Origin: an uncultured delta proteobacterium
GTDB lineage: Bacteria; Desulfobacterota; Binatia; Binatales; Binataceae
Reading direction: 5' to 3'
NCBI GenBank assembly: GCA_963794325.1
Contig: CAWCDG010000003.1
Coordinates: forward strand, 224,001 to 288,000
DNA length: 64,000 nt
The translations under genes were made by a program, and so were the position numbers. Under the pieces are notes generated by a model. The model was given only the letters and a program-made list of their open reading frames with translations. It made no database searches and was not told where the DNA came from. Positions 2,221 to 21,016 of the stretch are shown piece by piece. Positions within the stretch are counted from its first letter, which is position 1. Each line of letters begins with the position of its first letter.

Positions 2221-2715
2221 TTAACTCCCCATAATCACCGCTAGCTCGCGCTCCCGATACTCGAAAATCTGCGCGAGGCTCCGCGCGACGAACAGATGAT
2301 ACGCAATCTCGCCGAGCGGCCCCAGCGGCATCGCATACTCGACGCGATCTTTCACTTCCGTCGCGCCGCCGCCGACATCCCTGAAGAAATGGCTATGACG
2401 CCACAATGCGTACGGCCCTTTCTCCTGCACATCGACAAACTTCTTCGGCGGTTCGACGATCTCAATCCGCGTCTGCCAATGGACCGGCACGCCATACAGC
2501 CGAATCTGGTAATCGATCAGCGTCCCGGGATGCATGACTTCAGGCGGCGTCGAGAGAAATTTGAATTGCAGAAACTTCGGCGTCAGCCGCTTCAGATTGC
2601 GCGCATCGGAGAAAAATCTGAAGGTCTCGGCAATCGGCCGAGGCACAATCTGCGTGCGCTCGAGCGTGCGAACTTTCACGTGGTCGAGCGTATTGGATTC
2701 GACGCGGTGAATCAC
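2221..2715 (-). CDS. SRPBCC/cyclase-family protein
   Basis: Motifs F.FFSDARNL..LTP, F.DVQEKGPY..WRH.H.F, T.V.DRVEY..P.G. Confidence 0.85.
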   Translation of the reverse strand: MIHRVESNTLDHVKVRTLERTQIVPRPIAETFRFFSDARNLKRLTPKFLQFKFLSTPPEVMHPGTLIDYQIRLYGVPVHWQTRIEIVEPPKKFVDVQEKGPYALWRHSHFFRDVGGGATEVKDRVEYAMPLGPLGEIAYHLFVARSLAQIFEYRERELAVIMGS

Positions 2716-2733
2716 CAGACCGCCGCGCCGAAC

Positions 2734-3249
2734 GGTAGTGCCCTGATTTGAATACTAGAATGACAAACTACGGTGAGGTATCGGAGGGTTATATAAGGCT
2801 GAGCAGGACAAAGATTATGCCGATGGTCGCGACGTTCCAGACTATCGAGCGGACCAGCGGGACGCCGAAGGCGTAGAGCGGCACGTAGGCCACACGGCCC
2901 CAGAAATAGAGTTGCGCGCCCCACGCGGTCATCCAGTTGTGGCGGCCAATGACGTTGGCAACCAGGATCGCCGCGACGAATAGCGGAAAGGTTTCCCTGA
3001 AATTGCTCAACGCGCGTTCGAGCCGCGCGGCGACGCCGGTGAGCGGCGGCATCGCCTGATCACGCGCGCTGGCCGCCCACCGGTATCCGTACTGGACGCT
3101 GGTAGCGTGCGCGCTCAGGACGATTTGTACCAAGCCGAGCGCAGCACTCAACGCGAGCATCTGAAGTTCGATGGTCATGATTTCAGTGCGGTATTTTGCC
3201 GCGTCCTTTTTCAGAGAGTAATGCTCTCGATTCAAATTAGGACAGTACC
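2734..3249. mobile_element. Non-autonomous cassette with IS1-like inverted ends and an 8-bp TSD, carrying a MAPEG gene
   Basis: Left end GGTAGTGCCCTGATTTGAA (2734-2752) and right end TTCAAATTAGGACAGTACC (3231-3249) are 16/19 inverted; CGCCGAAC is duplicated at 2726-2733 and 3250-3257. Confidence 0.85.
2789..3178 (-). CDS. MAPEG-family membrane protein
   Basis: Start MTIELQML; motifs ARL.RA..NF.E.FP.F and GA.LYFW.R..Y.PLY..G.P..RS. Confidence 0.85.
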   Translation of the reverse strand: MTIELQMLALSAALGLVQIVLSAHATSVQYGYRWAASARDQAMPPLTGVAARLERALSNFRETFPLFVAAILVANVIGRHNWMTAWGAQLYFWGRVAYVPLYAFGVPLVRSIVWNVATIGIIFVLLSLI

Positions 3250-3337
3250 CGCCGAACCTCACAAGTTGTGCCGCTATCCGCGCGTAGTGTAACTTTGTAG
3301 GCTCAAATAAAGGAAAAAGCAGCACAAAATCGGGTAA

Positions 3338-5035
3338 ATGAAAAAACTTACGGGAGCACAAATCGTTATCGAGAGCCTCATCGCCGAAGGCGTCGATGTA
3401 ATCTTCGGCTATCCCGGCGGCGCCATCCTGCCGACTTACGACGCGCTACTCGACTCAAAAATCAAGCACGTTCTGGTCCGTCACGAACAGGGCGCGACAC
3501 ACATGGCCGAGGGCTATGCCCGCGTCAGCGGACGCCCCGGCGTCGTGCTGGTTACCTCAGGCCCTGGCGCGACCAACACCGTCACCGGAATCGCCGACGC
3601 GTACATGGACTCGACTCCGATGGTAGTCCTGTCGGGTCAGGTTCCCACCACGATGATTGGCAACGACGCTTTCCAGGAAGCCGACTTCGTCGGTATCACG
3701 CGGCCGTGCACCAAGCACAATTTCCTCGTCAAGAACGTCAAGGACATCTCGCGCATCATCAAGGAAGCATTTTATATCGCCGGTAGCGGACGTCCCGGTC
3801 CGGTCGTCGTCGATTTGCCCAAGGACGTGCAGCAGGCCGAGCACACTTTTCATCTCTCCGAGAAAGTTGAGCTGCGCGGCTACAAGCCGACGATTCGCGG
3901 CAATCCCCGGCAAATCGAGCGCGCGATCGAAGCGATCGAGAAAAGTTCGACACCGCTCTTCTACGTCGGCGGAGGCGTGCAGTGGTCCGGCGCGGCGTCC
4001 GAATTGCGCGAACTGGTGCGAGGACTGGGGATTCCAATCACCGAGACGCTGATGGGACTCGGATCCTTCCCGGCTTCCGACCCGTTGCGGCTCGGGATGC
4101 TCGGGATGCATGGTTCGTACGGTACCAACACCGCGGTCTGTAACACCGACTGCCTGATCGCGGTAGGCGCGCGCTTCGACGATCGCGTCACCGGCAAGAT
4201 TTCCGAATTCGCACCGAAGGCCGAAACCATCATCCATATCGACATCGACCCGTCGTCCATTTCGAAGAACGTCAAGGTGGATGTTCCGATCGTCGGCGAT
4301 ATCAAGTCCGTACTCACAGACATGCTGACCCAGATCAAAGGCCGCGAGAGTATCGGAAAGCGCCGCGCCGAGTGGTCGAAATGGCATCAGCAGATTCTCC
4401 AGTGGCAGAAGGAGAAGCCGCTCTACGAGAACGGCAATCGCGGCGAGAGCGTCTCACCGCTCGACGTCATCGCCGAGATGCACAACATCACCAAGGGCGA
4501 CTGCATAATCGCGACTGACGTCGGACAGCATCAGATGTGGGTGGCGCAGATGTTCCCCTTCGAGAATCCGCGCTCGTGGCTGACCTCCGGCGGCTTGGGC
4601 ACGATGGGCTACGGATTGCCCGCGGGAATCGGTGCGACCTTCGCCGCGCCCGACAAGAAAGTAGTGGTCGTCAGTGGCGACGGCTCGATCCAGATGAACA
4701 TCCAGGAGCTGGGTACCGCCGTTCAATATAATGTGGATATCAAAGTAATCATCCTGAATAACTACTTCCTCGGGATGGTTCGCCAATGGCAGGAGAAGTT
4801 CTACGCCGAGCGGTATTCCTACTCCGCGATGTCGGTGCCGAATTTCGTCAAGCTGGCCGACGCGTACGGCATGCACGGCTTCCGGATCGAAAAGGCGAAG
4901 GATCTCGTCGCGACGATGAAAGAAGCATTCGCGACCCCCGGACCGGTGCTCATCGACGTCGTGATCCCGAAGGAAGAAGCCGTGATGCCGATGATTCCTC
5001 CGGGCGGCGCGATGTCCGAAATGCTCTTCGCCTGA
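3338..5035 (+). CDS. ilvB: Acetolactate synthase large subunit (biosynthetic type)
   Basis: FGYPGGA, RHEQGA, TSGPGATN, DVGQHQMW and the GDGS TPP-binding motif. Confidence 0.95.
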   Translation: MKKLTGAQIVIESLIAEGVDVIFGYPGGAILPTYDALLDSKIKHVLVRHEQGATHMAEGYARVSGRPGVVLVTSGPGATNTVTGIADAYMDSTPMVVLSGQVPTTMIGNDAFQEADFVGITRPCTKHNFLVKNVKDISRIIKEAFYIAGSGRPGPVVVDLPKDVQQAEHTFHLSEKVELRGYKPTIRGNPRQIERAIEAIEKSSTPLFYVGGGVQWSGAASELRELVRGLGIPITETLMGLGSFPASDPLRLGMLGMHGSYGTNTAVCNTDCLIAVGARFDDRVTGKISEFAPKAETIIHIDIDPSSISKNVKVDVPIVGDIKSVLTDMLTQIKGRESIGKRRAEWSKWHQQILQWQKEKPLYENGNRGESVSPLDVIAEMHNITKGDCIIATDVGQHQMWVAQMFPFENPRSWLTSGGLGTMGYGLPAGIGATFAAPDKKVVVVSGDGSIQMNIQELGTAVQYNVDIKVIILNNYFLGMVRQWQEKFYAERYSYSAMSVPNFVKLADAYGMHGFRIEKAKDLVATMKEAFATPGPVLIDVVIPKEEAVMPMIPPGGAMSEMLFA

Positions 5036-20582: not shown

Positions 20583-20707
20583 TAGTGGGGCGGGCCGCCG
20601 TGCCCGCCATCGACGCGTGGGCGTCCGCGTCCACGCTTACCGAGGAATGACTCTGGGTGTGGCCGCACTTTGAGGAGGCGGCCCCCGGGCACATAGGCCC
20701 GCCCCAC
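20583..20707. repeat. REPIN-like inverted REP doublet
   Basis: GTGGGGCGGGCCGCCGTGCCCGCC ... GGGCACATAGGCCCGCCCCAC. Confidence 0.65.
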
Positions 20708-20727
20708 TGAAACCAGGACAATACGCG

Positions 20728-21016
20728 CCCGCGATGGCCGCTGGCGTGACGGATCGGCTATGGTCAGTTGAAGATTTGATCGTGCAAGGGCACTAACGCA
20801 ATGCTGACCTTTCGCTTTATCGAATCCAAGAACGCAATCGAGGTCGAATTTGACAACGCAGGTATGGCAGCGCTTTTAGAGGAACTCGCTCTGCTGATAC
20901 ATCACCGCAATCACACCCATTTACGAACTCCGGCATTAGGCGGAAGTGAGCTATCGAGAAAGTCCGAGGTGTCGGAGGTGACGATCTACTATCGTCGTTC
21001 AAATTAGGACACTACC
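20728..21016 (+). mobile_element. IS1-family element remnant: transposase tail, passenger gene and right end
   Basis: PAMAAGVTDRLWSVEDLI* at 20728-20796; end TTCAAATTAGGACACTACC at 20998-21016 is 18/19 identical to 3231-3249. Confidence 0.75.
20801..21007 (+). CDS. Small passenger protein resembling the Imm32 immunity family
   Basis: HTHLRTPALGGSELS resembles the Imm32 H.HL.TP..GG.EL motif; its stop lies inside the IS end. Confidence 0.55.
   Translation: MLTFRFIESKNAIEVEFDNAGMAALLEELALLIHHRNHTHLRTPALGGSELSRKSEVSEVTIYYRRSN

Follow-up and report, generated by a model that had tools for sequence, protein, structure and literature searches.

A 516-bp MAPEG gene cassette in a soil bacterium is a probable mobile insertion cassette derived from an IS1-like transporter element

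The window analyzed here, the whole 64,000-nucleotide stretch of DNA from a soil bacterium, contains between two ordinary genes an element of 516 bp that carries one intact MAPEG gene and is without a transposase. Its identification as a mobile insertion cassette (MIC)-type derivative of an IS1-like transporter element, working like MIC231, is well supported by the comparisons presented below. The element alone is of modest interest, and behind it stands a large family with many cargoes.

The element lies between two identical copies of an 8-bp target duplication, CGCCGAAC, at 2726-2733 and 3250-3257, and is bounded by inverted ends, downstream of MAPEG at 2734-2752 (plus strand) and upstream of it at 3231-3249 (minus strand), which match at 16 of 19 positions, the likeness ending at base 20. 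The probability that ends like these and a perfect 8-bp repeat would meet by chance in 64 kb is about 0.001 as a rough upper estimate. An earlier note, made from the letters alone, had described the 516-bp cassette in these terms, and its duplication, its 16/19 ends, and its lack of a transposase were all confirmed. Flanked by a duplication and bounded by terminal repeats, the element looks like a product of transposition and not an integron cassette. The terminal repeat at 2734-2752 is the counterpart of the right end in the parental transposase-MAPEG element, the match to genome G083 starting exactly at its tip; it is followed by a spacer from the end to the MAPEG stop (2753-2788), also common to G083 within a block of 481 bp (96%), by the gene for a MAPEG-family membrane protein of 129 amino acids (2789-3178, minus strand), and by a 36-bp leader (3179-3214, minus strand). 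The leader holds a hairpin and a T-run on the plus strand (3186-3204) and is shared with G083 and with metagenome copies L157-L160 and L162, where it lies behind an IS1-like transposase tail, but not with the copies flanked by glutathione S-transferase (GST)-like genes. The deletion junction is at about 3214/3215, and the 16 bp between the shared block and the end (3215-3230) gave no match when 164 other genomes of the order were searched.

Four public soil runs, all from one study and possibly including the source sample, provided contigs for the site: one from run X1 spans the filled site (2416-3351, 4 differences), and junction contigs were obtained for the left side in X3 and for the right side in X2. 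The element is therefore not an assembly artefact. The X1 contig differs at four positions in MAPEG (2955, 2997, 3062, and 3112), two of them in agreement with metagenome copy L158, and these differences represent strain variation or consensus errors. A joint in run X1 that skips 2680-3262 was not counted as an excision; the contig is about 88% alike and its intervening letters are unresolved.

The host flanks are an SRPBCC/polyketide-cyclase-like gene (2221-2715, minus strand), co-oriented with MAPEG and downstream of it, and a divergent gene for an ilvB-type acetolactate synthase large subunit (3338-5035, plus strand), which is named from sequence alone and is conserved in relatives. The earlier note had looked to relatives for a clean empty site and regarded its absence as fatal to the cassette idea. 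Such a site was found in relative G021, which has exactly one copy of CGCCGAAC and no element, and the window minus the element and one repeat is identical to G021 at 234 of 275 aligned bases. The element is thus a true insertion. Orthologous loci were recovered from 29 relatives among 61 genomes searched, and none of the 29 has such an end at this site. Both flanking genes are present in 16 of these loci, the SRPBCC anchor being missing in 13, and in 10 of the 16 syntenic loci the flank-to-flank gap is −3 to 19 bp. Other inserts of 219-598 bp occur in six of the 16 syntenic relatives, and the gap upstream of ilvB (window 2716-3337) is an insertion hot spot.

The assignment of the MAPEG gene rests on a PF01124 match of 77 bits (cut-off 23.4) and on its place in a tree; its third-position GC of 0.80 is host-like, and a scan of 2600-3400 found no promoter consensus near it. 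In G083, which belongs to another genus, the last ∼60 transposase codons precede the 481-bp block shared with window 2734-3214, which stops at the same tip and lies at an unrelated site of the genome; a search of 14 kb gave no left end, so a complete parent has not been seen. Five metagenome contigs of one locus contain the same 439 bp (97%) behind the same transposase tail. In the tree, from which G083 was left out, these tail-linked copies and the window gene form a clade (support 94), and the sister group (support 93) contains three copies adjacent to GST-like genes, named from their sequences. Together, these copies indicate that MAPEG rode behind a transposase first and that the transposase was lost afterwards; the gene capture envisaged in the earlier note, in which the gene is taken directly between two ends, is contradicted by the transposase-linked stage in G083 and the metagenome contigs. 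The window element is accordingly derived by deletion from an IS1-like element that carried cargo, which makes it a MIC, and its descent from the IS1-like lineage is nearly certain. A second two-ended MAPEG cassette was found neither in 165 genomes of the order (one of the searches scored three candidates per genome) nor in the best 80 of 202 metagenome loci, none of which has an end. A paralogous MAPEG gene at C4:1103587 and the copies in G004, G027, G018, G012, and G072 were considered as cassettes and rejected, having no such ends. Two other types of repeat were seen near MAPEG copies: in L033 (G018:C2, ∼1071400-1071900), a ∼20-bp direct repeat flanks the gene and duplicates the 3′ end of a neighboring gene, and in L159 (also L157, L158, L160, and L162), gene-sized units, one of which is the transposase tail with MAPEG, are set apart by four palindromic repeats of ∼55 bp (2678-2735, 3399-3450, 3541-3598, and 4758-4817 in L159), which have TG-rich tips and are different from the IS1-like end.

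The earlier note would also have given up its cassette if the motif were never associated with a transposase or with target duplications elsewhere; such associations were found, and the IS1-type character that had been ascribed to the ends is borne out by the relatives. The end motif is present in 36 of 47 genomes of the genus (none for a reversed control), and five elements of 2,118-3,349 bp in the genus have the same ends, 8/8 duplications, and a single-ORF IS1-like transposase, accompanied by a small basic ORF as an accessory and by passengers that differ from element to element. Among the 46 elements listed in the wider census described below, the duplication is 8 bp in 43, 9 bp in two, and 7 bp in one. 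Members of the IS1 family have GGnnnTG ends and 8-9-bp duplications, as do the parent elements here, and classical IS1 (InsA/InsB) has an N-terminal zinc finger and a frameshifted two-ORF transposase. The parent transposase is a single ORF of about 276-290 amino acids without N-terminal Cys pairs; its best match is NF033558 (47-51 bits, cut-off 100), its score against PF03400 is 20-22 bits (cut-off 24.1), and its nearest plasmid relatives (45-48%) are annotated “IS1 family transposase”. It is best described as IS1-like, seemingly closest to IS1 yet below curated cut-offs, and we take the ISMhu11 subgroup to fit the parent transposases. Asp66, Asp137, and Glu202 are invariant in six transposase sequences and are the predicted DDE triad, with a presumed catalytic role. 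The small basic ORF, which has a GGxKGG-like motif and no convincing Pfam match, occurs in eight of eight large elements (L097-L101, L114, L085, and L089), and tRNA genes were called inside two autonomous elements (Ser-CGA, 73 nt, L100:1996-2068; Gly-CCC, 92 nt, L089:2035-2126).

An intact transposase with these ends, which the earlier note had proposed to seek, was found in relatives but not in the host assembly (85% complete), where only three transposase tails were found; with only these, the suggestion that the host genome may “run” a capture and delivery system is not supported. The assembly does contain a 396-bp cassette (C4:762632-763027) with a 7/8 duplication, a transposase tail, and a 96-residue ORF, a 3,166-bp block of lower GC (C4:702058-705223) with an 8/8 duplication and a degenerate left end, and a 33-bp palindrome of this end type (C4:62416). 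The second end in the window, at 20998, together with the transposase tail and the different passenger to which it had been linked, is real in all three parts. The last 23 codons of an IS1-like transposase (20725-20796, plus strand) are abutted by the tip of a degenerate, away-facing end (20708-20725, minus strand) that is part of a neighboring remnant, and are followed by a 68-residue passenger ORF (20801-21007, plus strand) that terminates at a stop inside a consensus terminal repeat (20998-21016, minus strand). This repeat is unpaired: within 8 kb there is neither a partner that faces inward nor a duplication. The passenger, for which there is a weak lead to Imm32 (feature score 0.85), recurs in G002 (L110; 196/232 bases), where it is enclosed in a cassette of 290 bp that has two ends, the partner end being a different one; cargo-plus-end halves are thus shuffled. 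Nearby, at 20586-20707, is a member of a REP-like palindromic repeat family with 62 genome matches, five of which adjoin an IS1-like end. Small ORFs with one common signal peptide-like leader and different bodies were seen at C4:487294, C4:1786841, and C2:131834 and in L055 and L111, and two leader-sharing ORFs of the host genome (G000) sit just inside IS1-like ends. The host also has a passenger-carrying element of the IS1595 family whose transposase is frameshifted (C3:115364-117750) and a second, intact IS1595 transposase (C4:1741858-1742301), the ends of which were not found.

A scan of the genome collection gave at least 124 loci with the end (80 with long flanks and 44 with 300 bp), of which at least 46 have paired ends, at least 28 have a duplication of at least 7/8, and at least 14 have a long transposase match; the loci listed come from Acidobacteriota, Verrucomicrobiota, Planctomycetota, Alphaproteobacteria, Bacteroidota, Chloroflexota, Binatia, and others. 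The census covered loci L037-L156 and L237-L360 and one region of the host's own genome, with paired ends lacking a duplication left out, and divided the elements into autonomous forms, cassettes (>200 bp with <200 residues of cognate transposase), and mini-elements (≤200 bp). Among the loci listed, at least 46 distinct duplication-flanked elements comprise 13 autonomous elements, 20 cassettes, and 13 mini-elements of 32-195 bp, six of which, 32-42 bp long, carry 7/8 or 8/8 duplications; the chance of a 7/8 duplication at random pairs is 0.0007. The cassettes, which include the window element, are commonly 257-562 bp, and their cargo includes NUDIX, GNAT, glyoxalase, and MAPEG proteins and many small ORFs of unrecognized family, among them many membrane genes; L316 keeps 115 residues of transposase, and the ORF of L289 is presumably a nested IS3-type ORF. 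The cassette idea therefore extends beyond MAPEG, as the earlier note had surmised, many transposase-free cassettes with varied cargo and 8-bp duplications having been found. No recombinase gene other than the transposase was seen to be common to the elements. The NUDIX cassettes form a series in which L116 has a transposase fragment, the gene, and an end, L112 has an end, a tail, the gene, and an end, and a transposase-free form of 485-488 bp occurs at two unalignable sites, the copies being 95% identical and each having its own duplication (8/8 and 7/8). The presence of one NUDIX cassette at two unrelated sites indicates that such cassettes can move as units, and among the loci listed it is the only one of the 20 found at two sites. 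L107 and L108 were rejected as two jumps, being one orthologous insertion, and the idea that deletions in the transposase tail stop at one fixed point was also rejected, since the junctions are spread over profile positions 14-70 and a small group near 68-72 is too weak.

The ends themselves have an unexpected trait. Read outward in one frame, the consensus end encodes Ser-Asn-stop, and after 34 mini-elements were dropped from 234 distinct ends, the stop was present in 179 of the remaining 200. An ORF of at least 60 codons closes at this stop in 55 of the 179 ends, or in 51 of 175 (49 clusters) when four transposases are removed, compared with 13 and 8 of 179 in the control frames and one of 21 ends without the stop, although the p-values of this comparison are inflated by related ends. 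Most of the 51 non-transposase ORFs have no Pfam match and 24 have a membrane-like segment; the recognized domains (Rap1a, Eco29kI, and cation efflux) are nearly whole and end 3-9 residues before the stop. An Eco29kI-type nuclease (L130:1018-1722) and a Rap1a immunity protein (L270:1179-1715) are among the proteins that terminate inside an end. In L111 (1289-2580, G030), three same-facing ends behind a transposase tail each close a different ORF, and a 6/8 duplication surrounds the array. A stop occurs in just one outward frame of the end, so that random deletion and selection would give the same bias, and the simplest reading is that deletions ran up to the end and selection kept those that left a gene intact. 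A near-palindromic 9-mer common to both ends forms the middle of the 33-bp palindromes (12+9+12), the arrangement that slippage would be expected to give; the nearly precise excision of Tn10 involves comparable slippage.

The history that we judge somewhat the most probable, up to and including a jump in the 516-bp form, is that of a MIC arising from a cargo-carrying IS1-like element. MAPEG, the nearest non-IS relatives of which adjoin GST-like genes, would have come to sit in such an element behind the transposase and ahead of the right end, an order of transposase tail, MAPEG, and end that survives as a relic in G083. An internal deletion, for which the graded series of sister elements is the model, would then have removed the transposase and the rest to ∼35 bp from the left tip. 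A cognate DDE transposase, needing only the ∼19-bp ends, inserted the element with an 8-bp stagger between SRPBCC and ilvB; the empty site establishes the insertion, and its occurrence after the deletion and in trans is the probable order. In its present position MAPEG is co-oriented with SRPBCC and may be transcribed from the host's divergent promoter. Of the single-gene cassette moved in trans that had been proposed from the letters, the IS1-type ends, the true insertion, and the cognate transposases stand, but the jump of the short form has no second two-ended copy in the 165 genomes to bear it out. For this reason shrinkage in place, in which a full cargo-carrying IS1-like element inserted, lost its interior, and left a stranded relic that never moved in short form, is a strong rival, although we consider it the less probable history. 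It accords with the single copy of the MAPEG cassette, with the tails that are all that is left of the transposase in the host assembly, with the many remnants whose tails are cut at varied points, and with the 33-bp end-to-end palindromes, which look like further in-place collapse. Against it stand the NUDIX cassette, found in one short form at two sites, the excess of short duplication-flanked elements over autonomous ones among the loci listed (33 to 13), and the absence of any such end at this site in the 29 relatives' loci. The perfect duplication is expected under either path.

Two further explanations are much less probable. That the ends, or mini-elements of 33-39 bp, act as a dedicated platform taking up genes at their inner edge into integron-like arrays is very unlikely, although the 51 ORFs in 49 clusters that stop inside an end, the domains finishing just before that stop, the three-ended array of L111, and the six smallest duplication-bearing mini-elements could all be read in this way: MAPEG uses its own stop, 55 bp from the tip, and leaves the stop inside the end unused, the transposase-tail intermediates point to deletion, the junction positions vary, no shared recombinase besides the transposase was seen, and the stop bias is equally given by random deletion and selection for an intact gene. 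Movement of the cassette by the IS1595-family transposase of the host is still more strongly disfavored. The host has an intact match, and IS1595 elements with 8-bp duplications and passengers are described in PMC5704250, but the ends of the element at C3:115364-117750 are different (4/19 alike), and the 13 autonomous elements with the ends of the cassette, among the loci listed, encode an IS1-like protein. The IS1-like lineage might also be a cross-phylum shuttle for single genes, in which the 19-bp end is a portable stop codon and the trimmed genes are minimal, complete, trans-mobilizable units that stack into arrays; we regard this as unlikely, although less so than the platform. If true, soil genomes would receive small genes for membrane, detoxification, and immunity proteins, and possibly newly born ORFs, from a cassette pool that resembles an integron's but has no integrase.

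Cassettes of this type are invisible to transposase-based annotation, and if they are moved in trans, a 19-bp motif would be enough to map a hidden traffic of single genes among soil bacteria. The series from parent through tail-bearing intermediate and cassette to 33-bp scar makes the long-assumed path from transporter IS (tIS) to MIC to MITE directly testable.

The view of the earlier note that this is a candidate undescribed system does not hold, since the class is already known as MICs and transporter ISs (PMC6199540 and PMC3129680). No account of IS1-ended MICs, or of ends that supply the stop codons of their cargo, was found in the literature searched, the scope of which did not extend to key ISfinder reviews or to ISfinder/TnPedia. 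In PMC6199540, MICs are defined as two inverted repeats without a transposase around one or more genes and are about 700 bp-3 kb in size, and trans-transposition is proven for MIC231 with IS231; MICs and transporter ISs are standard categories in PMC3129680 and PMC9330008, and the modularity of IS231 is treated in PMC2266710. Like MIC231/IS231 of Bacillus cereus and the Tn3-derived MICs of Xanthomonas, the window element has two ends, no transposase, a passenger, and a duplication, with cargo that varies across its relatives; its ends are shared with autonomous ISs, in relatives and not in this assembly, and its duplication is matched by an empty site. It is not MIC231, being without the IS231-type ends (CAT…) and 10-12-bp duplication given in PMC2266710, and at 516 bp it is below the size range quoted above. 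The parents resemble the transporter ISs of the IS1 and IS1595 families (e.g. MTnSag1 and tISCpe8; PMC3129680 and PMC5704250) in having a single ORF for a DDE transposase, passengers between short ends, and 8-bp duplications, the last also stated for IS1595 tIS in PMC5704250. The window element differs from a transporter IS in having lost the transposase, which its relatives retain; the parents differ in falling below the NCBIfam IS1 cut-off, in lacking the N-terminal zinc finger, and in having the small basic accessory ORF, and their single-ORF transposase without N-terminal Cys pairs also distinguishes them from classical IS1. The ends of the host's IS1595 element match at only 4 of 19 positions. 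MITEs are similarly non-autonomous, end-defined, and duplication-flanked, and the 13 relatives of 32-195 bp among the loci listed fit that description, whereas the window element carries a complete 129-residue gene and is single-copy. Although the MIC class is known, the IS1-like lineage of the ends, the small size, the spread over several phyla, and the cargo that often closes at a stop inside the end appear to set this family apart from the MICs described.
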